IMG/VR virus record: IMGVR_UViG_3300045241_000115
Span: 9,960 to 73,959 of that record
DNA length: 64,000 nt
Source of the DNA: a virus
Strand: one strand, 5' to 3'
The translations under genes were made by a program, and so were the position numbers. A model generated the notes under the pieces. It did no database searches. It was given only the letters and a program-made list of their open reading frames with translations, and had not been told where the DNA came from. The stretch's first letter is position 1. Every line of letters begins with the position of its first letter. Shown here in pieces: positions 4,056-61,351 of this stretch.

Positions 4056-4421
4056 ATGAGCGGCCCGGTCTACCAGGGGCCGCTGACACGGTATGGCGAT
4101 TTACCGGCGGCGAAGCTGTGGCAAGCATGGCTGCGCGCTCGGTACAAATCGCGCCGTCCTCCCGTGATCGGCGGCAAGGTCATCGCCCTGGCGCTCGCCT
4201 GTTATGGAGACTCGATGGCATGGCCGTTGACCGAGGATATCGCGGACTATTTCGGCTGTACGCAGACATCGGTGAACTCTCAGGTCGGTCTCAACGTGCG
4301 TCGCGGCCTGCTGAGTTGGCGGGGAGAGCCGCTGTACGTGAGCCGCCTGTGGTCGCCGGTCACGATCCGCTACCTCGAGCCGTCGTCGGAGGTTCGCAAA
4401 GAGAAGTTCGATGGGGTTTGA
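4056..4421 (+). CDS. HTH-domain protein
   Basis: AAGGAG SD; WPLTEDIADYFGCTQTSVNSQV..NVRRGLL. Confidence 0.6.
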   Translation: MSGPVYQGPLTRYGDLPAAKLWQAWLRARYKSRRPPVIGGKVIALALACYGDSMAWPLTEDIADYFGCTQTSVNSQVGLNVRRGLLSWRGEPLYVSRLWSPVTIRYLEPSSEVRKEKFDGV

Positions 4422-44693: not shown

Positions 44694-46222
44694 TCCTCAT
44701 TCTCCATGCTGCTCGCGGCACCATTGCCGCTCTTGGGAACGGGGGTCGAGACGCCCGGCATTCCTGGACCGACGCCCCCGCCAGCGCCGTTCGTCTTGCC
44801 ACCAGGGGCCGCTCCGGGCATTCCCGGCATCGTCTCTCCAGGCTCGGGCTGCTCCCACGGCGCGGGCGCCTCGCCTGCGTCCTCGATGTCCTGCTCGGAG
44901 ATGTTCGTGAACCTGCCTGTTTGGATGCTGCTCTGTTTCAACTCTTTCAGCGCGATCTGCGTGGTGATCACGCCGGCGTCGTGCAGCAGCTTGATTGTAT
45001 CGGAGTCGCGTTGCGCGACCTCGGCCTTTTCCATCTCGTTCAACTGATAGAGCGAGTTGAAGGTGAACGCGAACGTATCGGGCGTATCGGTGCCAAGCGT
45101 GCTGCGCCATATCACGTCGAACAGCTTGGTCAGCGGCCTGCGCAACCGCGCCTCCTGCTGCGCCTTGATCATGTCATAGTACTGCCGGAGGTCGCTTTCC
45201 CCGGTAGAGTTCAGCCCAGCCGGCGATTGACCGAACAGCCGCACGAGCGGAATGCCGAGGGCGCCCGAGATCTGCTGGCCCAGCATCAGCAACGTCTCAG
45301 ACAGACCAGCGAACGAATACGAGTGCGTTTCGAATTCATCCTCGGCATCGATGACCGTCAGCCCTTCGTTGGACTGATAAATCCGCATCAGTTCCATCAG
45401 CTTGTGGAACTTCTCGGTCAGCTCGGAATTGAATGCGACGAGGTTGCGGTAGTCTTTGACCTTGTACGTGCGCAGATAGGCTTTATAGAGAAGCTGCGCG
45501 GTGCCCATCGTGCCGCTGTCAAATGCGACGAGACGGTCCTGCAACCGCTCGATCACGCTCATGCCCCACAGGTTCTCAGTGATGCGTTGATTGAACGGCA
45601 GCCCGATGCCGTCGAGACGAATGCAGCGGGAGTAATGCACCTTCATGTTCGGCAGATACGGCGCCTGCTGAACCACGTCGTACTGCACGGGCATGCCGTA
45701 ATCGGGGCCGAACTCCTTGACGAGGTTCTGATACGTTGGCTGGACCATCCAACGATCCAGCACGACGAAGCCTTTGAGCTGATCCTTCGCGATGCGGTCG
45801 GTCAGCAAAGGCTGCGCCGTGTCCTGACCGTCGATCATCATGACCATCAGCGCGCCGCCGTACAGCCGGCTCCATTTGATCGTGTCGCCCAAGCTCTGCC
45901 ACATGCAGAGTTCGTTGATGCGGGTGTGGATTTTTTCGATGTCGTCAGGCGGCGTGTCGGAATTCATGATCACGCCGGCCCGCGTCATGTCGTCGGCCAC
46001 CACATCAACCGCGGCGCCGACGACCCACGAGCCGCGATACATCCACTCGAGCTTCTGCCGCAGGCGAGTGAGCGGCAGATAGCCGTAGGTCGTGGCCGCC
46101 ATCAGGTTTTGCGTGCCGATGCCCACGCGCGCGGCGAAGTTCTCCACCGAGTCCGTCGTCATGGCGCCTTCCCATGACGATGCACCGGCGCGCACCCGGA
46201 TGCGTGGGCGCGTGCCTGACAT
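44690..46222 (-). CDS. portal protein (DUF1073-like)
   Basis: MYRGSW....VD..A.DMTR, W.RLYGG, IP..RLFGQSP.GLNSTGESD...YYD. Confidence 0.9.
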   Translation of the reverse strand: MSGTRPRIRVRAGASSWEGAMTTDSVENFAARVGIGTQNLMAATTYGYLPLTRLRQKLEWMYRGSWVVGAAVDVVADDMTRAGVIMNSDTPPDDIEKIHTRINELCMWQSLGDTIKWSRLYGGALMVMMIDGQDTAQPLLTDRIAKDQLKGFVVLDRWMVQPTYQNLVKEFGPDYGMPVQYDVVQQAPYLPNMKVHYSRCIRLDGIGLPFNQRITENLWGMSVIERLQDRLVAFDSGTMGTAQLLYKAYLRTYKVKDYRNLVAFNSELTEKFHKLMELMRIYQSNEGLTVIDAEDEFETHSYSFAGLSETLLMLGQQISGALGIPLVRLFGQSPAGLNSTGESDLRQYYDMIKAQQEARLRRPLTKLFDVIWRSTLGTDTPDTFAFTFNSLYQLNEMEKAEVAQRDSDTIKLLHDAGVITTQIALKELKQSSIQTGRFTNISEQDIEDAGEAPAPWEQPEPGETMPGMPGAAPGGKTNGAGGGVGPGMPGVSTPVPKSGNGAASSMENEE

Positions 46223-47598
46223 CAGAGGTTCGCCCAGACGTTCAGGTTGGTGGCGGCGACGAGCTGAAAGGCGCGCGAGGTCGCGTCCGCGTCATCATCG
46301 TGCGGGAGCATGGGGAAGCCCTCGAGCATCTGAAACCAGCGCTCGTTCCAATCGCCGCGCAGCACGAGCACGTTGCCCGCCTGGGCCTGGGCCGAGAACG
46401 GACTGAACCGCGTGATCTTGTCGCCGGTCTCGGGCGAGTACTCGATAGGGAAGCCGGCCAGCATGCGCACGAAGGCGGCGATCTGATGCTTGCCCGCTTG
46501 GCCTGGATCCTGTGGCAGCCCGACCTTGCAGCCGTAACCGTCCTGGCTGGACGTATTCAGCACGACACGCTCGACATCGGCGGGTGTGCCGCGCATGGCT
46601 GAGGCATGCAGCACGATGTACTGGCCTTGCAGCGTGCGGCCGATCTTGACCGATGCCGTCCAGTCCGGATCGTTCTCTTTGGTCTCCGGCGTCGCCGCAA
46701 GATCCCAGCCGCGTCCGCTCAGCACCAATGCTGGCGGGATGTCCACCACACGAACCCACGAGCGGTTGAAGTACAGGCCAGCGGACGGCCTGATCTTCCA
46801 ATTGCCGTTCAACAGCCTTTCGCGTTCGACCGCCGGCAACATCATCAGATTGCCGAGGTACGCCGGGTCGTTGCGCATCAACGCCGGGTTGTCGGCCAAC
46901 TTGGCGGCTATGAATGTGGCGGATTTGATAGTCGCTCTCGATTGCCCGGTTGCGCGCATCGCCTCGTGTTTGCTGTCGAACCAGAGCAGCCCATCGTCGG
47001 GGCCGCGCACGAAGTAGCGGACGACGCCGGAGCGTTCGGCGATCGGGTAGCCGGACTGCTGGTCGATCCACCAGGCGATGAACTCGGCGACCCACGAACC
47101 GGCATCGGCATTGCAGCTCGCGCGGATGTATGGCCGCACGCCGGTCAGACCGCGGTTGCGGGAGAGCAGGTAGAAGAACTGATGGCGGGTGAACGTGGTC
47201 AGCTCGTCGAAGCAGATCAGCGGAACCTGCGAGCCGTGCCAGTCCAGGACGGTGTGTTCATATTCCAAATGGCTGAGTTTGACGCTGCCGCCGTTGGGCC
47301 AGCGCCATTGCAGCAGATGGTTGATCGGGATGCCCTGGCCGTGCGGGAACACCTTCATGCTCTCGGACCACAGCCCGCCCGGGCGACGGATGTCGGTGGT
47401 GTTGCGGCGGAACATCACCGCATCGAAGCCGCGTGTGCGGGAGGGGTAACGCATCGCTTCGAGCAGGAGCGCCCACGATTTGCCCGAGCCGGCGGCGCCG
47501 CCGAAGATGGCGATGTCGGCCGATGAGCTGAGGAAGGCGAGTTGCGGGCCTTCCTGCGGCATGATGCGGCGTTCGGTTTGTCCGATGGCGGCACTCAT
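46222..47598 (-). CDS. terL: terminase large subunit
   Basis: GGAAGSGKS, ICFDELT, ASCN, WDLAAT, QDPGQAG, HDD.AD. Confidence 0.95.
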   Translation of the reverse strand: MSAAIGQTERRIMPQEGPQLAFLSSSADIAIFGGAAGSGKSWALLLEAMRYPSRTRGFDAVMFRRNTTDIRRPGGLWSESMKVFPHGQGIPINHLLQWRWPNGGSVKLSHLEYEHTVLDWHGSQVPLICFDELTTFTRHQFFYLLSRNRGLTGVRPYIRASCNADAGSWVAEFIAWWIDQQSGYPIAERSGVVRYFVRGPDDGLLWFDSKHEAMRATGQSRATIKSATFIAAKLADNPALMRNDPAYLGNLMMLPAVERERLLNGNWKIRPSAGLYFNRSWVRVVDIPPALVLSGRGWDLAATPETKENDPDWTASVKIGRTLQGQYIVLHASAMRGTPADVERVVLNTSSQDGYGCKVGLPQDPGQAGKHQIAAFVRMLAGFPIEYSPETGDKITRFSPFSAQAQAGNVLVLRGDWNERWFQMLEGFPMLPHDDDADATSRAFQLVAATNLNVWANL

Positions 47599-50100: not shown

Positions 50101-50792
50101 GCGGTGGCCTCATGGCGTGAGGATGCGACAAAAGACTGTTTCGCTAGTTGAAACAGTTGCGACAATAACTGGCCGAATATTGCTGCGGGTGCCGTCTGAT
50201 CGTGTCGGAAGCCATTGATCTGACAAGGAAATAATACAGATTGTTCCGTTGCGGCAATCTGCGACTATCGCATTGCTATCGATGATCTTTGACAAATGAA
50301 TACGGATCGCACGCCGCCCCACACGGGGCGCGGGGGTCGCTCGGGGGCCAAGCGCACGTTGCGCGGGGTCGAACCCATCCACGAGCCGCTTACGCGATGT
50401 GCACGTCTACCGCGATCCGATGATCTGTTCCTGATCATTTCCCGTCTTTGACAAATAAATCCGCCACCCTGAGCACGAAACGACATCCGTGGTCGCGCAG
50501 CCTATCGGCGCAATCGGATGCACGTCATGCGAGGGGAGCGGGTTTCATAGGCAACCCAATTCACCGCATTCCCGCGCTTCGGCGCTGCCTGTAAGGCGAT
50601 GCGGGGTGATGTTCGTGGATGTTTAGTTGCATCTCGGTGCAACCCTCTGCCCGTGGCTATCGGGGTGAGGGCGGTTACCTGCCTGCAAGGCGTGCGACGA
50701 AAGCTGACGCGAACAGCACCGGAGTGGTTTGGTGTGTTCTTTTCTTTCTGTTGATTGGCATCGTGTGAAGGCTACGGCCTTTGCGCGATGCC

Positions 50793-50841
50793 GGTCCGGG
50801 ATGTGAGCCATCCCGCTGAACGAGGCCATGAGGCCGAAACC
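50793..50841 (+). ncRNA. type III hammerhead ribozyme with variant core (CUGAACGA)
   Basis: GGUC^ CGGGAUG-UGAGC-CAUCCCG CUGAACGA GGCC-AUGA-GGCC GAAACC; predicted cut after 50796. Confidence 0.7.
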
Positions 50842-50860
50842 CAACAGAAAGGAACATCAT

Positions 50861-51124
50861 ATGACAATGGATCAATTTGTTCTCGGCGCGCGCGTGCGTC
50901 TCGTTCGCCGCGCCGGCGGAAACTACCCGGGTGCGAGTTTCTGCATCGAACCCGGCCCGATCGGCACGGTGATCAAATCGCCCGAGGATTTCTGCGTGGA
51001 CGAGTTCGCCCCGAATGTCGGGGTGCGGTTTGATGACCGCGTTGCCGATCTCGATATGTGGGACAACATCGTGATCGTGGGCGACGACTTCGACGCCACG
51101 GCCGATCATTTCGAGACACTCTGA
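50861..51124 (+). CDS. hypothetical early protein
   Basis: Conserved leader and ATG. Confidence 0.7.
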   Translation: MTMDQFVLGARVRLVRRAGGNYPGASFCIEPGPIGTVIKSPEDFCVDEFAPNVGVRFDDRVADLDMWDNIVIVGDDFDATADHFETL

Positions 51125-51193
51125 GACGAAACACGGCGCGTTGCGTCGTGTCCGTCGGCGCCTGCCCCTCCCGACGCTGATGAGTCAGGGGCA
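51125..51193 (+). ncRNA. type II hammerhead ribozyme with pseudoknot
   Basis: GAC GAAA, stem III ACACGGCGC/GCGUCGUGU, C^51152, stem I CGUCGG/CCGACG, CUGAUGA GUC; UGCCCCU/AGGGGCA pseudoknot. Confidence 0.92.
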
Positions 51194-51212: not shown

Positions 51213-51383
51213 ATGCGCAAGCAAATCGAGACGATGAAGACGAAGCTGCAGACGATGCTCGCCCGCGCCGAAGAGAAGGCCGACAGCGAGAACGAGACGG
51301 TCGGCGACAAGTACGCCGCCGTCATGGACGGTCTGCAAACCGCGCTCGACGGCCTGGACGAAGCGTTGCTCGCATTTGAATGA
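51213..51383 (+). CDS. small helical early protein
   Basis: Conserved leader and ATG. Confidence 0.7.
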   Translation: MRKQIETMKTKLQTMLARAEEKADSENETVGDKYAAVMDGLQTALDGLDEALLAFE

Positions 51384-51456
51384 CGAAACGCGCGGTGGAT
51401 GAGACATCGCGCGTCTGCATGGAACCCCGCCCATCCTGCACTGATGAGTCAGGGCG
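51381..51456 (+). ncRNA. type II hammerhead ribozyme with pseudoknot
   Basis: UGAC GAAA ... GUC^51415, stem I UGCA(U)GGA/UCCUGCA, CUGAUGA GUCA; CGCCC/GGGCG pseudoknot. Confidence 0.92.
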
Positions 51457-51475
51457 AACAGAAAGGAACATCACA

Positions 51476-51778
51476 ATGCCAAAGACCACAATCATGCTCA
51501 AGGCCGACGTTGCGCAGCGCAAGGCGCGTCATACGTGCCCCCAGTACGATCAATTCAAGAAGCCATCGCGCAAGGCGTCCAGAGCGAAGATTGATCCGAC
51601 GACAACCGCCGAGGCGGATCAGGCGATCTACGAGGCCGCACTGAGTCAGGTACGCGAGGCGATGCGCCGCTTCGCCGGCCCGCATGCGTCCAAACGCCAG
51701 CTCAAAGAGATCGACGCGGCGCTGAGCGAGGCATTCGGGCAACTCGACGCCATCGCGTACGATCTTGTTTGCATGTGA
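51476..51778 (+). CDS. hypothetical early protein
   Basis: Conserved leader and ATG. Confidence 0.7.
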   Translation: MPKTTIMLKADVAQRKARHTCPQYDQFKKPSRKASRAKIDPTTTAEADQAIYEAALSQVREAMRRFAGPHASKRQLKEIDAALSEAFGQLDAIAYDLVCM

Positions 51779-51847
51779 CGAAACGCGGCGCGCGCAGCGC
51801 TGCGTCTGCACGGACCTGCCCCACCCTGCACTGATGAGTCAGGGGCA
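51776..51847 (+). ncRNA. type II hammerhead ribozyme with pseudoknot
   Basis: UGAC GAAA ... GUC^51806, stem I UGCA.GG/CC.UGCA, CUGAUGA GUCA; UGCCCC/GGGGCA pseudoknot. Confidence 0.92.
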
Positions 51848-51864
51848 ACAGAAAGGAACAACCC

Positions 51865-52059: not shown

Positions 52060-52583
52060 GCGACAGCACTTCCCAGCTTGTCGCTGTTCTCGGCATGTTG
52101 GGATCGCAGTTCGACGGCGAGTGCCTGAACGCGGCCCGGATGGCCGAGAAAATGCGACGCAAGATGGACAAGACGTGGCAGCAATTGCTGACCGCCGGCG
52201 CGTCGTCTCCCAAGGACGAGCTCGGCTGGCTCGCACGCGCGTTGCGTGCCGAGAAAATGGTCAGCGATCTGACGGCGCGTATCGGCAAAATGGAGGCCGA
52301 ACTTGCCGAATTGCGCAAGGCTCGTCCGAGCGCGTCCGCGTCCTCGACCGGCCCACGTCCTCGCAGTCCCGGCTACAAGTACTCACTCAGCGCCGAGACC
52401 GAGCAGATCTTGATCGACAAGATGTTGCTGATCGAACGATCGACCAACGAGATCTATTACATCACCAAATGGCCGCGCGCGCATTTGCGCGTCGTCCTCG
52501 AGCGCATCGCCCATCGCCGCAAACTCGAGCTTCATGTGCGGCGACGGTTCGGCAGCACGTTCTATCGTTTCACGCGTGTCTAA
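52056..52583 (+). CDS. coiled-coil early protein
   Basis: LGMLGS.FDGE.LNAA motif; ATGA overlap. Confidence 0.65.
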   Translation: MSDSTSQLVAVLGMLGSQFDGECLNAARMAEKMRRKMDKTWQQLLTAGASSPKDELGWLARALRAEKMVSDLTARIGKMEAELAELRKARPSASASSTGPRPRSPGYKYSLSAETEQILIDKMLLIERSTNEIYYITKWPRAHLRVVLERIAHRRKLELHVRRRFGSTFYRFTRV

Positions 52584-52694
52584 CCCGTACGGATGCAGCA
52601 TCGTTCGATGCTGTATTCGCCTGGGTTAGCGGGGACTCATTCCGAGTCCCGCCCAGGCATCGCAATCATGCGATGGATACAGAAAGGAACATCC

Positions 52695-53039
52695 ATGCCT
52701 ACCATGAAGACGACATCTGAGCCCCGCGGTCAGACGGCCATCATCTGCAAGGTGCTGCAGCACAAGGACGGTTATACCGCCCAAGAGCTGCTCGCCGAGA
52801 CGGGTGGCACGACGCCGCACAACTCCTATTCGCTCCAGCTCATCGCCGATCGCTTCGGCTATGACTTCGTGTCCCACAAGGGCAGCGAGTACGAGGACGG
52901 GCTGATGCGGTATCGCTTCGTCCGCAAGGCGGCCCGCAAGGCCGTGAGCACCCGTCGCGCCGGCAAGGCGAAGGCGGTTAAGGCGGCGGCCGCGTCGACC
53001 AAGCGGCCTGCGAAGAAGACCGCGAAGTCCAGGGCGTAA
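52695..53039 (+). CDS. HTH-like protein with Lys/Ala-rich tail
   Basis: GYTAQELL..TG; histone-like C-terminus. Confidence 0.65.
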   Translation: MPTMKTTSEPRGQTAIICKVLQHKDGYTAQELLAETGGTTPHNSYSLQLIADRFGYDFVSHKGSEYEDGLMRYRFVRKAARKAVSTRRAGKAKAVKAAAASTKRPAKKTAKSRA

Positions 53040-53171
53040 CACGAGACCGAGCGCGGCGGGCGATCATATCGTCCGCCGCGAACGGACCTGACCCGTACGG
53101 ATGCAGCATCAAACGATGCTGCATTCGCCTGGGCCAGTGATGGTACAGGGCTAAACAGAAGGGAACACCGA

Positions 53172-54173
53172 ATGGCGAGAGAGTTTCTCACGTTGAAGCA
53201 ATTGCGCGAGAGGACCTGGAAGAACCAAGACGAGGCTATTCTGGATCTGAAACGCGCGGGGCTGAAGCCGGTCGGCACCGACTATGTGCTGGGCGAGCAT
53301 ACGCCCGGCAGCAAGGTCTGGCAGTTGCTGGACCGCACGGACGCCGATGGTTCGCAAGAGCCGCCGACGGCCAAGCCGGCGAAGGCCGCGAAGGCTCCCA
53401 AGAAGACGGCCAAGTCCGAACATCCGGGTGACGCCGACATGAAAGCCAAGGCCGCGAAGGCGACCGGCTATGACGTTCACTTCCGAGTCAGTCCGACCAA
53501 GAAGTTGAACGAGCAGGCCGACACGTTGGAGGCGGCCCGTGCGATCGCCGCGCGCATGAATGCCGAACACGGCAAGAATGGGCGACGTGCGATGATCTAC
53601 GCGCGACAGGCGAAGGGTCCGTCCATCCCGATCACAGGCGACGATCCGCCTGTGACGAAGGTGGCGGAGAAGGTGAAGGGCGCGAAGGCGAAGCCCGCCG
53701 ATGCGCCGGAGCCGGAGCCTGCGCCGGAGCCTGCGAAGCCTGCCGAGCCGGCCAACGACATGACGCCGTTGCCGGCGGCCAACGGGCCGTACAACTTCCG
53801 TCTCGATCAGCCGCCGGCGCAGCATTCGCTGTTGCCGACGGCGCTCGAATGGTCGCGCAAGACCGGCTTCGTCGTGGCGATCATCGACAAGGCCGGCAAC
53901 GTCGTGCGCAAGATCGACGGCCGGCTGGGCGGCAAACGTCCTACGCGCACGGCGACGCGCGTGGCAACGCGCACCCCCCGCGCACCGCAGGGCGAGGGCA
54001 AGATGGCCACCGCCACGCGGCTGCTGATGCGTCCCGAGGGCGCATCGGCTGACGAGATCAGCAAGGCGACCGGATGGCCGACCGGGCAACGTCATATCAA
54101 CAAATTAGCGAAGCTCGGCGGGCTGAAGATCGTGAACGTCCGCGACAAACATTGGCGGCTCGTCAAAGCCTGA
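53172..54173 (+). CDS. multi-domain protein with C-terminal DUF3489-like HTH
   Basis: LL.RPEGAS..EI..ATGW. Confidence 0.65.
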   Translation: MAREFLTLKQLRERTWKNQDEAILDLKRAGLKPVGTDYVLGEHTPGSKVWQLLDRTDADGSQEPPTAKPAKAAKAPKKTAKSEHPGDADMKAKAAKATGYDVHFRVSPTKKLNEQADTLEAARAIAARMNAEHGKNGRRAMIYARQAKGPSIPITGDDPPVTKVAEKVKGAKAKPADAPEPEPAPEPAKPAEPANDMTPLPAANGPYNFRLDQPPAQHSLLPTALEWSRKTGFVVAIIDKAGNVVRKIDGRLGGKRPTRTATRVATRTPRAPQGEGKMATATRLLMRPEGASADEISKATGWPTGQRHINKLAKLGGLKIVNVRDKHWRLVKA

Positions 54174-54245
54174 CCCGCGAGGGATGCAGCGTCGGTTGAC
54201 GCTGCATCTCCCTGGGCCAGACCAGGAAACAGAAGGGAACATCAC

Positions 54246-54437
54246 ATGCAATATCACATGCCACTCGATCCGGAATGCCCGGACGTCGCGGCCTTCACCG
54301 AGTCATTGTTCGATGACCCGATGACGACAGCGATGGGCGCGCCGGTCGATGACATCATTGAAGGCTTCGACAGACGACATCGCGCGAAGTGCGCGCGGTG
54401 TCAGGCATTCGGGGCCGCCAACGTGGAGGTGCGCTGA
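54246..54437 (+). CDS. small Cys/His (Zn-binding?) protein
   Basis: C...H...CARC. Confidence 0.6.
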   Translation: MQYHMPLDPECPDVAAFTESLFDDPMTTAMGAPVDDIIEGFDRRHRAKCARCQAFGAANVEVR

Positions 54438-54655
54438 TGAAGATCGGTCCGTGGACGGTGCATGCCTCGATCACGAGCGATCGGGTGTGCGAAGCCGTGG
54501 AGCGTCATCTGACCAGCTTGGACAACCCGGGATTTTGCCTCGCTTGCGGCGCGGATGCAGAAGGCGTTGAGCCGGACGCTGAAGGCTACGAGTGCGAAAT
54601 CTGCGAGGAGCCCGCCGTTTGGGGCGCCGACCAGCTTCTCATCTATCTCGCCTAA
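54437..54655 (+). CDS. Zn-ribbon protein
   Basis: GFCLACG....VEPDA..Y.CE.C....V.GA. Confidence 0.7.
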   Translation: MKIGPWTVHASITSDRVCEAVERHLTSLDNPGFCLACGADAEGVEPDAEGYECEICEEPAVWGADQLLIYLA

Positions 54656-54739
54656 CCCGCGACCGATGCAGCGACACGTTCTCTGCATCTGCCTGGGTTA
54701 GACAACGGGGGCCAGGCCCCGAACAGAAAGGAACATCAC

Positions 54740-55063
54740 ATGCGAAAAACTGCCATGACGCCGATCGAACGTGATCGATTGATGGTGCTGTCGCCGGGCG
54801 AATGGCCGAAGTGGCCAGTTCTACCGCTCATGCGGCGGGATGGCGATTTTCATGCCGACGACGCGGCGGGATTTCTTCTCGCCGTGGTCGATCAGTCGAG
54901 ACCGGTCGTTTATCTCGGCACGATCTATCGGACCGACGACATCGCCACAGAAATCAAACAGGAAACCGGCAAAAGAGCCAATTGGTCCCAGATCGTGGCC
55001 AGACTCCCAAAGCGGGAGTTCGACACGTTGGATGCCATGCTCTCCGCATATCGCATCGACTGA
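54740..55063 (+). CDS. hypothetical early protein
   Basis: Conserved leader; WP.WP.LP..R. Confidence 0.7.
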   Translation: MRKTAMTPIERDRLMVLSPGEWPKWPVLPLMRRDGDFHADDAAGFLLAVVDQSRPVVYLGTIYRTDDIATEIKQETGKRANWSQIVARLPKREFDTLDAMLSAYRID

Positions 55064-55149
55064 CCCGCGACGGAAGCAGCATCACTGATGCTGCTTCTGC
55101 CTGGGTCAGTTTTACCGCGCCACCAGGGGCGCAACAGAAAGGAACAACC

Positions 55150-55422
55150 ATGACTACACGGATGACCATCGGTGCCGTGCTGAAGGCGAAAGCCGGCAAG
55201 CACGATCCCGAACCGGTCTATTGGATCAGCGAGCCTCCCGCTGTCTGCGAGCTTTGCGGACAGAAGATCAAGGAAACGTTCGCTGATGCCCGGACGGTTC
55301 AAGGGCCTTGGGGCTCCTTGGATCTGAAATGCCTGCGCATCCACGGTGTGGGTGTCGGCAAGGGCAAGGGCCAGGTCTATCGTCGTCAGGACGATGGGCG
55401 CTGGCTGAAGGTCGAGGGCTGA
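55150..55422 (+). CDS. Zn-finger-like early protein
   Basis: CELC...F.DART..GPW....C...G.G.G.G.GQ.Y. Confidence 0.7.
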   Translation: MTTRMTIGAVLKAKAGKHDPEPVYWISEPPAVCELCGQKIKETFADARTVQGPWGSLDLKCLRIHGVGVGKGKGQVYRRQDDGRWLKVEG

Positions 55423-55423
55423 C

Positions 55424-55699
55424 ATGGCCGAATTGCGCATGAGTCCCGACAAGTACGAGATGGTCCGTGTCGTTGGAGACTGGATACGTGAAAAGGCGGA
55501 CGTCGAATATGCCACCTTCGACGGCCTCGACCGGTTGACGATCCCGGACCTCAAGCTGCTCTGCCTCGCTATCGGGTGCAAACTCGACCTGCACGAGGTG
55601 GCGCGGATGCGTGACTATTACCGGCGGCAATGGGAGTACCGCAACGGCAAGAAGGCAACGGTCGTCATCGATCTGAAGGCGATCACCGACGACACCTGA
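55424..55699 (+). CDS. hypothetical early protein
   Basis: Tightly packed behind the upstream gene. Confidence 0.6.
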   Translation: MAELRMSPDKYEMVRVVGDWIREKADVEYATFDGLDRLTIPDLKLLCLAIGCKLDLHEVARMRDYYRRQWEYRNGKKATVVIDLKAITDDT

Positions 55700-55777
55700 C
55701 CCGTGTGGATGCAGCGAGTTAGCTCGCTGCATTCATCTGGGCCAGACCCCAGAGCAACAGAAAGGAACACATGACAC

Positions 55778-56791
55778 ATGAGACAACCCGAATGGGTCCA
55801 ACGACCCGACGGCCGAGGTACGCGCCTCGAGCGTGAGGCAACTCGCGTCGAGGAATGGAGCCCGACCGTCACGCAGATGCGCGATGTCGTCCAGGCAGGG
55901 CGCGTCTGCGGACTCGACTTCTCGGAGATGCTGGACCTCATGCCGGAAGGCCACAACTATCTGGTCGGTCAGGCAGAGGTCGAGCGGGCCAGCGAGATAG
56001 CATTGGAGGCCGTCACCACCGGGCGTGTGATCGACTTCGGCTTCCTGCCGAATGCGGTCATCCGCTTCGGCGGCGAGCGCGGTGGGCCGCTCTGGAACAG
56101 GAGCGCGCTCGCCATGCCGTTCACCGACCCGTGGATCATCTATCACCGCTGGGAGGGACAGACCGGCATGTATCTGGTCAATCCCTCGTCGGACGGCAGG
56201 TCCTTTCAGATCGTGGAATTCCAACCAGCAAAGATCGATGGCGAGAACATGCTGTTGATCGGCGACCGCGGCGAATTCCACAAAACGCCCGATGGTTCCG
56301 ATCTGCCGGACAAGCGGTACAACGCCTGGATGATGCCGTCGGCGGCACGATTTGTCTCCGATGGGATTGCGCGCAATCGGATCAACAACGACGCGTCCTC
56401 GCCCGAGGGCGCGGCCGCCGGCAACGTCGGCGATCCGGTCATGATCGCGTTGCTGATCCTGAATACGCGCAACATCGACCGCGAGACGGTGAGCGCGCCG
56501 CCGAAACTGCAGGCGGCGCGTCGCAAGTCGGGCAAACCGCCGATCCCGAACTACGATCGGGTGAACTCGGCGCCTTACGTGACGGCCATCAACATCTCCG
56601 GTCCGCGTCGCGGACGCAGCGAGGACCTGGGCGGTACGCACCGTTCCCCAGTGCCTCACATCCGTCTCGGCCATCCCCGGACTTACCAGACGGGGCGCAG
56701 CATTTTCATCCGCGATACGCTGGTGGGAGTGCCGGACGAGCAGCGCGCGGCGTTCAAGAGCCAGCGCACTCATTACGAAGTGAAGCCCTAA
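55778..56791 (+). CDS. conserved phage protein with C-terminal SP..H.R.GH.R motif
   Basis: RRK.GKPP...GTH.SP.PH.R.GH.R. Confidence 0.7.
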   Translation: MRQPEWVQRPDGRGTRLEREATRVEEWSPTVTQMRDVVQAGRVCGLDFSEMLDLMPEGHNYLVGQAEVERASEIALEAVTTGRVIDFGFLPNAVIRFGGERGGPLWNRSALAMPFTDPWIIYHRWEGQTGMYLVNPSSDGRSFQIVEFQPAKIDGENMLLIGDRGEFHKTPDGSDLPDKRYNAWMMPSAARFVSDGIARNRINNDASSPEGAAAGNVGDPVMIALLILNTRNIDRETVSAPPKLQAARRKSGKPPIPNYDRVNSAPYVTAINISGPRRGRSEDLGGTHRSPVPHIRLGHPRTYQTGRSIFIRDTLVGVPDEQRAAFKSQRTHYEVKP

Positions 56792-56862
56792 CCGAAGCAC
56801 CGCGCGGTTCGCCGCCCGGTGTTTCGGCCAGCGCTTCGCTGGGCAACAGAAAGGAACACCAA

Positions 56863-57234
56863 ATGCCGAAAACCGACGCGACAACAGAGCGGGACGCGAT
56901 GGTGCAAGCCCTGCATGACAGCATGGCCTTGCGCAGTCCCGCCGAGTTCGTCGAAACGATGGAGTTACCCCACGATCTGTATGTCGCCATTGCCACCGGC
57001 CGTCCCGAGCTTATCACGCTCGCGACGGCACGGGACATGACGGCGGCGGAAGTCGCCGAGCTCTACGAGGTGATCGCGGTCCTGATCCGCACAAACTACG
57101 CGCTGCAGGTTCACGCTCGCGAGCTTGCGAAGATGGCGAGCGATTTCGGTCGTCAGATGCACGGTGCGGCGCGTCAGATCGCGGCGATCGAGCAGTTCGC
57201 CGACTTCCGGAAGTCAGACAATGACGACCGGTGA
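56863..57234 (+). CDS. hypothetical early protein
   Basis: Conserved leader and ATG. Confidence 0.65.
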   Translation: MPKTDATTERDAMVQALHDSMALRSPAEFVETMELPHDLYVAIATGRPELITLATARDMTAAEVAELYEVIAVLIRTNYALQVHARELAKMASDFGRQMHGAARQIAAIEQFADFRKSDNDDR

Positions 57235-57700
57235 GCTGCGCGCCAGTCTGCGCACGACGTCCGAGGGCTTTCGTCGCCTGGGGTCTTCCCCTGGCGGTTG
57301 GCTGCTCGCGGAACTCGTGCTGCAAGTCGGCGTCGACTATACCGCGCGGCCATTGCCGCGACGCTACATGCGCCGTGCGCCGAAGCAATGTTTTGCCAAT
57401 GCCGCCGCCCTGGTGCGACGCACGCGCGGATTGACTTACGTGGAAGGCTTCGTCCGCACGGCGCGCATCCCGTTTCCCGTGCACCATGCGTGGGCGGTCA
57501 ACACGGACGGCGAGGTCTACGATAACACGCTCGGCGATCCTGAGACCTGCGCCTATGTCGGGGTGCCGATCTCGCGGCACGATTATGCGGCGCAGACCAG
57601 TCCCGACAGCGCCAGCGTATTCCTCAATCACATCGGCATCCTGCGCGTGGACTACATCGTCTCGCGCTGTCCCGCCTTGCGGGAGATGATGCCTGCCTGA
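57221..57700 (+). CDS. transglutaminase/papain-like Cys-His-Asp protein
   Basis: KQCFANA...YVEG....HAW.....YD.T. Confidence 0.6.
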   Translation: MTTGELRASLRTTSEGFRRLGSSPGGWLLAELVLQVGVDYTARPLPRRYMRRAPKQCFANAAALVRRTRGLTYVEGFVRTARIPFPVHHAWAVNTDGEVYDNTLGDPETCAYVGVPISRHDYAAQTSPDSASVFLNHIGILRVDYIVSRCPALREMMPA

Positions 57701-57781
57701 TCAAGATGGAAGCACCGCGCCGCCCCTGGCGGTCCGGTGTTTCCACCCCGATCAGGGGACAACCAACAGAAAGGAACACCG

Positions 57782-58186
57782 ATGAACAGATACGTGGCGT
57801 TCTGCGCCATTTCAGTTCTTGCTGCGTGCACGATGGCACCGCCGCAGCAAAAATCTACAATCGCCGTCGACCGGTACGACGGCTCACCATGTTGGCCCAA
57901 CGACCAGCCGGATGCTGGACGGCCGCTGGAGCCGGGCGAATCGCAACTGCTGCACTTGTGCGGCTCGAACCCACGCCAGCAGGCGATCATGGACGCCGAG
58001 TATCACAAGGGCATGGCGGAGTCGGCGGCTTATACGCGTCAATGGCAGGCGCAGCATCCCGATGCTCGATCCTATGTCGGCATCAGCACAAGCGGGCGAC
58101 CGCTCGACTGCGTCGGATGGACCGAGGGAGGCGTATGGCAGTCTTCGTGCATGAGCCATCCCGGAGCCTGGCCGGGAGTTCGATGA
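57782..58186 (+). CDS. putative lipoprotein
   Basis: MNRYVAFCAISVLAAC lipobox. Confidence 0.6.
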   Translation: MNRYVAFCAISVLAACTMAPPQQKSTIAVDRYDGSPCWPNDQPDAGRPLEPGESQLLHLCGSNPRQQAIMDAEYHKGMAESAAYTRQWQAQHPDARSYVGISTSGRPLDCVGWTEGGVWQSSCMSHPGAWPGVR

Positions 58187-58449
58187 TGGACAAGACGAAG
58201 ACGCCGCCGCGCGGTGCGTTCGATTACCTGCTGCGCGACGTGGACAAGACGATCTGGCGCGATGCCGACCTGGGCGACGCGCCACCTGCGCCACCTGAAC
58301 GGGGTGGCGGCGGTCCGCGCGTACGCGTGGAGATCGAGATCGTGCAGCGCCCGCCCGCGCCTCGGCGTGAGTGGGCGATCAACAAAGTGCTGTTCTGGGT
58401 CGTCGCGATCATGCTGATCGCTGGCCTGCTGGGCAGTCTGCACGCCTGA
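58183..58449 (+). CDS. protein with C-terminal TM
   Basis: VLFWVVAIMLIAGLLG; ATGA overlap. Confidence 0.55.
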   Translation: MMDKTKTPPRGAFDYLLRDVDKTIWRDADLGDAPPAPPERGGGGPRVRVEIEIVQRPPAPRREWAINKVLFWVVAIMLIAGLLGSLHA

Positions 58450-58530
58450 CTCGCGAGGGATGCAGCGATACGCTCGCTGCATCTCCCTGGGCCAGACACG
58501 GAACCAGGGCAACAGAAAGGACGACACCAA

Positions 58531-59070
58531 ATGATGCACCGAGAAAGACTTGATCGGCAGATCGCAGTGCTGCGCGAGGTCGCGGCATCCGAGCGCGTAT
58601 TCGACATGCGCGCTTGGATAGAAAAGCCGCGCTCTCATGAAGGCGCTTGCGGCACGTCCGCTTGCGCGTTCGGCTACGGCGCGCTCGATCCGCAACTGCG
58701 GGCCGAGGGGCTGCGTATGGCGGTCGGCTTCACCAAGGAGGGCAACGACGAGAAGACCTGTGTCGATGTCGCCTCGAAAGCGGAATACAACGCGCTGGTG
58801 ATGACGCTGACGCTGGACGAGCTCAGCACGCTTTCCGCCTATCCGGAGTTCGGTGGGTTGTCAGGCTTCGAGGCGGCGGTGGAATTCTTCGGCATCACCG
58901 AGGACTCGGCGAGCTATCTGTTCGATCCCGACTTCTACCCCGATCGCTACGACATCACGCCCGAGGACGTGATCAAGCGCATTGAGAGTGTGATCGAGTT
59001 CGACGGCAGGATACCGCGCTCCTACGTCCACAACGAACAAGAGCCGGAGGACGACGAAGAGAATTCCTGA
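58531..59070 (+). CDS. hypothetical early protein (CGTSAC motif)
   Basis: FDM..W...CGTSACA.G...FFGI....YLF.P..Y. Confidence 0.7.
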   Translation: MMHRERLDRQIAVLREVAASERVFDMRAWIEKPRSHEGACGTSACAFGYGALDPQLRAEGLRMAVGFTKEGNDEKTCVDVASKAEYNALVMTLTLDELSTLSAYPEFGGLSGFEAAVEFFGITEDSASYLFDPDFYPDRYDITPEDVIKRIESVIEFDGRIPRSYVHNEQEPEDDEENS

Positions 59071-59150
59071 TCGAAGGGGCGCCGCATCCCACTTGGGGTG
59101 CGGCTGCCCTTTCGACCAGCAATTCGCTGGGAACAGAAAGGATCAACACC

Positions 59151-59783
59151 ATGAAGAAGCCCAACCGGGCAGTCCGCGAGGGGCGTTTCGACTGGCTGAA
59201 GCAGCACCGCTTCGATGTCGAGTTCGCCAAACGCATACTGCTCACGACCGGCGAATGCCGGCCGATGTTCGTCATCGTCGGCAAGGTCCGCTCGTCGGTC
59301 ATGCCGGCGCTGTGGAACAGCGACGACGAACGCGACACGATGTATCTGCTGATGACGTTGCTGGCAGCGGCGGACAATGCGGTCGGTCTCGTGTTCATCG
59401 CCGAGGCTTGGATGCGCGGCGTGCTGCAAGTACCGGGAGAGACCACAGCGCAGACGCGCGAGCGCGCTATGCAGGTGGCGCCACGTGACGCGGAAGACCG
59501 GATCGAGGTGATCCACGTCGTGTGCTGTTACCGCGACGATGCCGGCGAGAAGCAGACGTTGTATTCGATCCTCGAGATCGAGCGCGACGCGACCGGCAAA
59601 CCGACCGGGACACGTCCCCGCAACATCGAGGGAATCTCGATGGAGTCGCGGCTGATGACGTGCCTGCCGCCCAAGGAGTTCAGCGAGGACGAATGCGAAC
59701 TGGCGCGTCGGCTGGCGATGGACACCGCCGAGCGCGCCGGCATCAAGCTGAACCTCGTGCACCCTACTGTCGGACACGCCTGA
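59151..59783 (+). CDS. hypothetical early protein
   Basis: EAWM...P....DR.EV. Confidence 0.7.
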   Translation: MKKPNRAVREGRFDWLKQHRFDVEFAKRILLTTGECRPMFVIVGKVRSSVMPALWNSDDERDTMYLLMTLLAAADNAVGLVFIAEAWMRGVLQVPGETTAQTRERAMQVAPRDAEDRIEVIHVVCCYRDDAGEKQTLYSILEIERDATGKPTGTRPRNIEGISMESRLMTCLPPKEFSEDECELARRLAMDTAERAGIKLNLVHPTVGHA

Positions 59784-59870
59784 CCCGTACCAAGGCAGCA
59801 TGAGCGATCATGCTGTCCTGGCCTGGGTCAGATCATCGCGCCACCAGGGGCGCAACAGAAAGGAACACCA

Positions 59871-61091: not shown

Positions 61092-61351
61092 GGGCCACGG
61101 GCGCGGCGATTCCCGGGCAGTCTAACTAGAACTATGGCTGATGACAGCCTGCATAGCAATACCTTGATTTTCGGCCTGCTTGCGGGAGTCGGTCCGCAGC
61201 ACTATCTTTCGCCCAGGAATGGCAGGCAAGACAGCAGGCCCCTCGTCCTATCGGGGAGTCGGTGCCCTCACCGGGTGAGTCATGTTGTTCCTTTCTGTTT
61301 GGAACGGCGGTGCTGGTCGGCGCCGCCGTTCCTGCGTACGGACGCCTGTGG

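Follow-up and report, generated by a model that had tools for sequence, protein, structure and literature searches.

Introduction

Clusters of hammerhead ribozymes described in prophages (Perreault et al., 2011; PMC3088659) consist of several hammerheads lying between small phage genes of unknown function, and include type II forms with a pseudoknot between loop I and the 3' tail, a form with an insertion at A6, and weak stems III. The insertion after A6 (A6a) is a rare natural variant whose activity is low yet measurable, and weak stems III are common among natural hammerheads (Perreault et al., 2011; PMC3088659). Hammerheads and twisters have also been engineered in E. coli as switches that mask a ribosome-binding site (RBS), cleavage raising expression 5- to 100-fold (Felletti et al., 2016; PMC5052635). 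In these switches, and in the hammerhead design cited in that work, a helix between the Shine-Dalgarno (SD) and an anti-SD extends the open stem of the ribozyme, and the SD is intended to come free once the RNA is cut; the design exists in a hammerhead and in a twister-P1 format. The function of hammerhead and twister ribozymes in bacteria and phages was called open in a 2019 review.

We analysed a 64,000-nt stretch of phage DNA (the window; bases 9960–73959 of the 73,959-nt virus record IMGVR_UViG_3300045241_000115, from a soil metagenome), in which small genes of an early operon are punctuated by hammerheads, as in the prophage clusters, with type II forms carrying the loop I/3' tail pseudoknot, an A6 insertion and a weak stem III likewise present. 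Unlike those clusters, the first unit of the window is a type III hammerhead and lies within a covarying SD/anti-SD helix (hereafter, the clamp), two phages retain the insertion, all cistrons carry one long leader, and the equivalent slots of related phages hold twister ribozymes or a hairpin unit. As in the engineered switches, the SD:anti-SD helix extends the open stem of a ribozyme; unlike them, the clamp is natural, is split by a bulge into two helices totalling 18 bp, has a hairpin between it and the ribozyme, and is predicted to persist after cleavage, and no ligand-sensing domain was identified. Our literature search turned up no published natural SD/anti-SD clamp around a ribozyme. Hammerhead clusters in phages and the A6a variant had been described before; the present analysis adds cognate complementarity across four leader variants, its independence from ribozyme class, and conservation of a core variant of the slow type. 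The locus offers a concrete, comparatively backed hypothesis for the role of a phage ribozyme, with the first ribozyme placed within a helix that hides the first RBS. This helix matches the leader in each of its four sequence variants, is found with ribozymes of at least two classes and would be the natural counterpart of the engineered switches, so that phage ribozyme function becomes testable by simple cleavage and reporter assays.

The early operon and its shared leader

The large terminase gene of the window lies on the − strand (46222–47598), and small + strand genes, the majority without a Pfam family, run from 50861 to ~60800. The first cistron of this ribozyme-punctuated operon, gene 1 (50861–51124, +), encodes an orphan protein of 87 aa, also without a Pfam family, and found no relatives when used as a search anchor. 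Each small + strand gene of the run is preceded by a shared leader, AACAGAAAGGAAC, with 16 + strand copies between 50843 and 59866 against a chance expectation of 0.4 matches. A further copy at 1360 (+) lies ahead of a ParB_N protein, bearing out an earlier remark that the leader of the first gene is common to the other units and to parB. There is also a copy at 61287 on the − strand, where only an 11-codon mini-ORF follows (MTHPVRAPTPR; 61299–61246, −). The leader of gene 1 spans 50842–50859 (+) and contains the SD, GAAAGGA, at 50847–50853, all of it paired in our model of the precursor RNA.

Three canonical type II hammerheads (51125–51193, 51381–51458 and 51776–51848, the first on the + strand) fill the three spacers after gene 1. 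Each begins at the upstream stop codon and finishes at the next leader; they are sub-threshold in Rfam and complete by inspection. Spacers further downstream carry another element, a repeated hairpin unit. Starting from the stop codon, this unit reads UGACCC or UAACCC, then GGAUGCAGC...GCUGCAU, then CCUGGGUCAG, and is found at 52583–59831 in the window and, on the − strand, at 4209–252, 190–140 and 700–650 in three related phages (L090, L073 and L088 respectively).

A probable hammerhead with a variant core ahead of gene 1

In the first slot, a type III hammerhead at 50793–50841 (+), identified by a descriptor scan, its fold and a homologue in L090, directly abuts the leader segment CAACAGAAAGGAA (50842–50854), the start codon of gene 1 being at 50861. 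It reads GGUC↓CGGGAUG-UGAGC-CAUCCCG-CUGAACGA-GGCC-AUGA-GGCC-GAAA-CC, with the arrow at the predicted cut after C50796, where the GUC triplet ends, and forms a three-helix junction in which stems I and II are closed by loops and stem III is open, the topology of type III. Stem III is a mere 3 bp (GGU/ACC, 50793–50795 with 50839–50841), stem I has 7 bp and loop UGAGC (50797–50815), and stem II has 4 bp (GGCC/GGCC) and loop AUGA (50824–50835), followed on its 3' side by GAAA at 50836–50839. The consensus positions G12-A13-A14 (in this GAAA), A15.1–U16.1 (A50839–U50795), H17 (C50796) and G10.1–C11.1 (G50824–C50835) are all occupied as expected. The one departure is core length: instead of exactly seven bases, C3-U4-G5-A6-N7-G8-A9, the core at 50816–50823 is the 8-nt CUGAACGA, with an extra base after A6. 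The sequence-only reading that preceded this work had described such a core, one base longer than CUGANGA, as well as the 3-bp stem III, and was right on both.

Rfam at its gathering level does not call a hammerhead at 50793–50841. Hammerhead_3 (RF00008, clan CL00010) scores 24.1 bits there compared with a gathering threshold of 48.5 (E = 0.21 over 12 kb), so the assignment rests on other evidence. In shuffled 64-kb windows the descriptor gave 0.015 loose matches per window, and none of 200 shuffles equalled the observed motif; in 1.37 Mb of fetched loci it found the window element, one in L090, one weak match and nothing else. Judged from these sequence features, the first-slot element is probably a hammerhead with a variant core, and self-cleavage is predicted.

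The L090 match comes from one of 80 phage contigs related to the window by their terminase (terminase identity, 71%). It is again a type III hammerhead (4731–4681, −) in the first slot of a ribozyme-punctuated operon, with core CUGAAUGA, and reads, in the same notation, GUC↓CACGGUG-UUCGC-CACCGUG-CUGAAUGA-GACC-ACGA-GGUC-GAAA-CAG. The extra core base is at the same place in both phages and the remaining core bases are identical, while stems I and II show four double changes and no broken pair, with one more compensatory pair in stem III (a comparison of two sequences only). The loops are UGAGC and AUGA in the window, UUCGC and ACGA in L090; U1, G4 and C5 of the first loop and A1, G3 and A4 of the second are the same in both (n = 2). 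The variant core is known in this group from these two hammerhead sequences only; as limited evidence (n = 2), their comparison argues that the A6a insertion was kept by selection rather than arising by decay, and hints that a core that cleaves slowly may be favoured by selection and not be a defect.

An anti-leader tract predicted to pair with the first SD

Upstream of the hammerhead, the 13-nt UUUCUUUCUGUUG (50741–50753, +) is complementary over 13 contiguous positions to CAACAGAAAGGAA (50842–50854), with 12 Watson-Crick pairs and one G-U. This pairing with the SD region of gene 1, pointed out earlier, holds up, as does the reported 16-bp C(UACG)G hairpin that follows (GGCAUCGUGUGAAGGC-UACG-GCCUUUGCGCGAUGCC; 50757–50792, +). 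A 13-nt run complementary to the leader arose in one of 300 shuffles of the upstream 640 nt. The figure of 13 nt holds for the core of the interaction; the whole clamp is longer, since RNAduplex adds a second helix of 6 bp between 50730–50735 and ACAUCA at 50854–50859. Together the two helices, which a bulge of ~6 nt separates, have 18 bp and span the entire SD-to-AUG spacer (18 nt). The second helix draws on a prefix, UUGGUGU (50729–50735, +), that is invariant in all five phages compared below. The clamp includes G-U pairs workable in the + strand RNA only.

The 135-nt region folds with z = −7.35, its junction closed by the anti-SD:SD helix and the 16-bp hairpin branching off between the clamp and stem III of the hammerhead. 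In the thermodynamic model the clamp contributes ~14.5 kcal/mol, and the probability that the SD is unpaired is ~0 in the precursor and 0.34–1.0 in the cleaved 3' piece alone. The two cleaved pieces are still predicted to remain bound to each other at −14 kcal/mol, and cutting alone would therefore not free the SD. In the minimum free energy (MFE) structure, an extension of the hairpin (GAUU:GGUC) covers the cleavage site, and this structure is 2.7 kcal/mol better than the hammerhead-active one. The GA that follows the tract is complementary to the UC in the cleavage triplet both in the window (50753–50756 with 50793–50796) and in L090 (~4836–4835 with 4733–4732, −). According to these models, GA:UC pairing may lengthen the hairpin and compete with stem III, providing an on/off alternative fold.

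The tract follows the leader in five phages

We compared the window with L073, L090, L078 and L088, the five phages together having four different leaders. In all five, a tract starting with the invariant UUGGUGU sits 130–205 nt upstream of the first start codon, and beyond this prefix each tract is the complement of that phage's own leader: GUUCUUUUCUUUCUGUUG for leader CAACAGAAAGGAACAUCA in the window; GUUCUUUCUUUCUGUU in L073, which shares the leader of the window; UGUCCUCCUCUGUA...GAGGG for CCCUCUACAGAGGACACC in L090; GUCCUUUAACCUCUGUUCAA for UUGAACAAAGGAC in L078; and GUCCUUAACCUCUGUUCAC for GUGAACGGAAGGACA in L088. Cognate tract:leader pairing beat 988–1000 of 1000 composition-preserving shuffles of the tract in each phage; this test was adopted after two weaker statistics, the duplex energy scanned across all of the upstream region and the length of the longest uninterrupted complementary stretch, each of which was significant in some phages only. 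For every distinct leader the cognate tract was the best partner, the L073 tract, with the window's leader, tying with that of the window within 0.2 kcal/mol. The predicted duplex has two helices with a tract-side bulge of 3–7 nt in each of the five, and MFE folds run independently on the five regions all have tract:leader as the closing helix with the SD inside it. A MAFFT alignment of the five regions did not bring the interrupted anti-leaders into register. The occurrence of a cognate anti-leader at the same place in five phages with four leaders supports, at the level of sequence comparison, selection on the anti-SD/SD pairing.

The same comparison bears on whether the tract mainly serves another purpose, for instance antitermination as a boxA-like site or termination as the U-rich tail of a terminator in the leader region, or whether the complementarity is incidental and the hammerhead a relic without activity. 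The segment UGUUCUUU resembles the boxA cores of rrn sequences, and a terminator-like stem with a T tract is called at 50716–50735. Both the boxA (or nut site) and the terminator-tail readings were rejected, however, because beyond UUGGUGU the tract follows the leader of each phage: it varies with that leader, as neither a host-factor site nor a terminator tail would, and in L090 it is UGUCCUCCUCUGUA, which is not U-rich. Moreover, no conserved terminator hairpin lies ahead of the tract in the relatives. For a relic speaks the poor activity of the published A6a variant (PMC3088659), and against it the conservation of the insertion and of all core bases while the stems covary. We regard this whole set of explanations as very improbable.

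Pairing in trans needs weighing too. Cleavage in the first slot could free a 5' fragment whose anti-leader is single-stranded and whose 3' end is protected by a hairpin. This fragment would pair with the near-identical leaders of the 16 cistrons and with those at 1360 and 61287, and would tune or shut off early translation as a whole. Such a role would fit a leader that is identical over at least 13 nt on 16 genes, far beyond the needs of an SD, and a prefix, UUGGUGU, that is the exact complement of ACACCAA, a motif of later leaders (56846, 59855) that is absent from the leader of gene 1. Duplex energies are best for the ACACCAA leaders (−22.7 and −21.9 compared with −20.1 for gene 1), three other leaders of the window pair with the tract slightly better than that of gene 1, and the stable hairpin after the tract in every phage would terminate the released fragment. 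Yet the transcript carries a single anti-leader and 16 leaders, and intramolecular pairing forms first, the fragment being predicted to remain on the leader of gene 1 (−14 kcal/mol). Furthermore, the complementarity in L090 (CCCUC/GAGGG) and L088 (GUGAAC/GUUCAC) is specific to the gene 1 leader, which favours action in cis. We consider pairing in trans unlikely.

Elements enclosed by the clamp

In all five phages the tract is followed by a long hairpin of unrelated sequence and then by the enclosed element, which is the A6a hammerhead in the window and L090, a twister-P1 ribozyme in L088, the hairpin unit in L073 and a structured stretch in L078. The twister-P1 (1580–1517, −) scores 32 bits (E 3.5e-4), below gathering, with the conserved core present. 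The order tract-hairpin-ribozyme-leader in L088 matches that in the window, and in the predicted fold its SD helix is continuous with the open helix of the twister-P1. The hairpin unit fills slots otherwise occupied by hammerheads or twisters and, in L073, replaces the slot-1 ribozyme inside the clamp. It had no Rfam match at E < 10, and its placement lends circumstantial support to a processing role, possibly self-cleavage. An Rfam search of the first slot of L078 found no family; in the same phage a twister-P5 (3764–3697, −; 40.9 bits, above gathering) lies just before the fourth leader. Equivalent slots within this one phage lineage thus contain a mixture of at least four ribozyme formats.

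Thus, the elements that occupy the slots in this phage group are interchangeable, and the clamp belongs to the first slot and not to the hammerhead. The sequence-only reading had taken the anti-SD for an extension of hammerhead stem III. Its placement of the SD within a tract:leader helix agrees with the models of all five phages; the attribution to stem III of a hammerhead does not stand, given that the clamp persists with the twister-P1 of L088, the hairpin unit of L073 and the structured stretch of L078. Since L073 and L078 enclose no recognised ribozyme, the role of the clamp cannot hinge on a known ribozyme in all members.

These enclosed elements also help to judge a purely structural explanation, by which the ribozyme abuts a fixed leader, so that only an upstream complement of this leader can close its open helix and insulate it from the long 5' UTR, masking of the SD being a side effect without regulatory meaning. 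In favour of it, stem III has just 3 bp, and the open helix lies at the clamp junction in the hammerhead (stem III) as in the twister-P1 (P1); weak stems III are, moreover, common in natural hammerheads (PMC3088659). However, the clamp persists in L078 and in L073, where the hairpin unit is self-closed and needs no closing helix, and its 18 nt cover the whole SD-to-AUG spacer, far above what closing a stem needs. On balance we doubt that closure of the helix is all there is to it.

Proposed mechanism

We favour, at slightly better than even confidence, masking of the first SD by the clamp in cis, with cleavage making this mask breakable. From the motifs, the homologues, the cognate complementarity in the five phages and the predicted folds, we infer that the tract is transcribed, that the element cleaves itself and that translation is affected. 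The 5' untranslated RNA of the early operon would end as a three-way junction made up of the clamp (50730–50753:50842–50859), the hairpin (50757–50792) and the hammerhead (50793–50841), with the weak 3-bp stem III stacked on the junction. Before cleavage, the clamp of the primary transcript would bury the RBS of gene 1. The hammerhead, with its A6a insertion (a variant reported to be slow), would then cut after C50796, so that the clamp, intramolecular until then, becomes a duplex of two pieces. Ribosomes or helicases could strip this duplex, or decay of the 5' piece could remove it. Cleavage would in this way render the mask removable without itself removing it, and gene 1 would gain a ribozyme-made 5' end and a free leader, like the later cistrons.

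In promoter scans of the window and L073, no site of the sigma-70 type lay near the tract, and L090 had none on the operon strand, the sole match being on the opposite strand. A TATAAT with a weak −35 is visible by eye in L073 and failed the promoter scanner.

A more elaborate scheme would treat the first slot as a module in which interchangeable self-cleaving RNAs (the A6a type III hammerhead, the twister-P1 and the hairpin unit, perhaps a new ribozyme class) are nested in an SD/anti-SD clamp. Slow cleavage would act as a timer that unmasks the first cistron and releases a hairpin-protected anti-leader RNA, whose pairing with the identical leaders of all early genes would set a window for early translation. 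As a whole, this scheme seems to us quite unlikely.

Searches for relatives and other elements near the tract

Exact patterns combining hammerhead and leader found nothing in viral contigs, or unrelated phages only, and there was no match among INPHARED phages. Distant relatives of a 337-aa protein were without the ribozymes and without the leader. In genome and metagenome contigs, the same pattern returned unrelated, mostly AT-rich phages in which a type II hammerhead is followed by AACAGAAAGGAA, with 49 metagenome matches to the AACAGAAAGGAA pattern compared with ~12 expected by chance (a rough estimate). The purine-rich leader AACAGAAAGGAA may thus be a widespread partner of phage hammerheads. 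Examples are L010 (3806–3889), L011 (2120–2027, −) and many of L024–L072, AT-rich phages from aquatic metagenomes whose type II hammerheads end directly in AACAGAAAGGAA.

Two further elements lie in the neighbourhood of the tract. One is a Y-shaped element in which a stem of CACCGCAU and AUGCGGGGUG encloses CGCGCUUCGGCGCUGCCUGUAAGGCG. Its copies in the window (50557–50607) and L073 (233–203, −) share 94% identity; it is upstream of the tract in the former and downstream of it in the latter. The other, the motif TCTTTGACAAAT(G/A)AAT, is present twice in the 5' region of each of three phages, at 50284–50305 and 50441–50461 in the window, at ~6199 and 5966 (−) in L078, and at ~5086 and 4880 (−) in L090. 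It resembles boxA (GCUCUUUGACAA in L078) and also a −35 hexamer without a −10 partner, and could be an antitermination site, an operator or another type of promoter.
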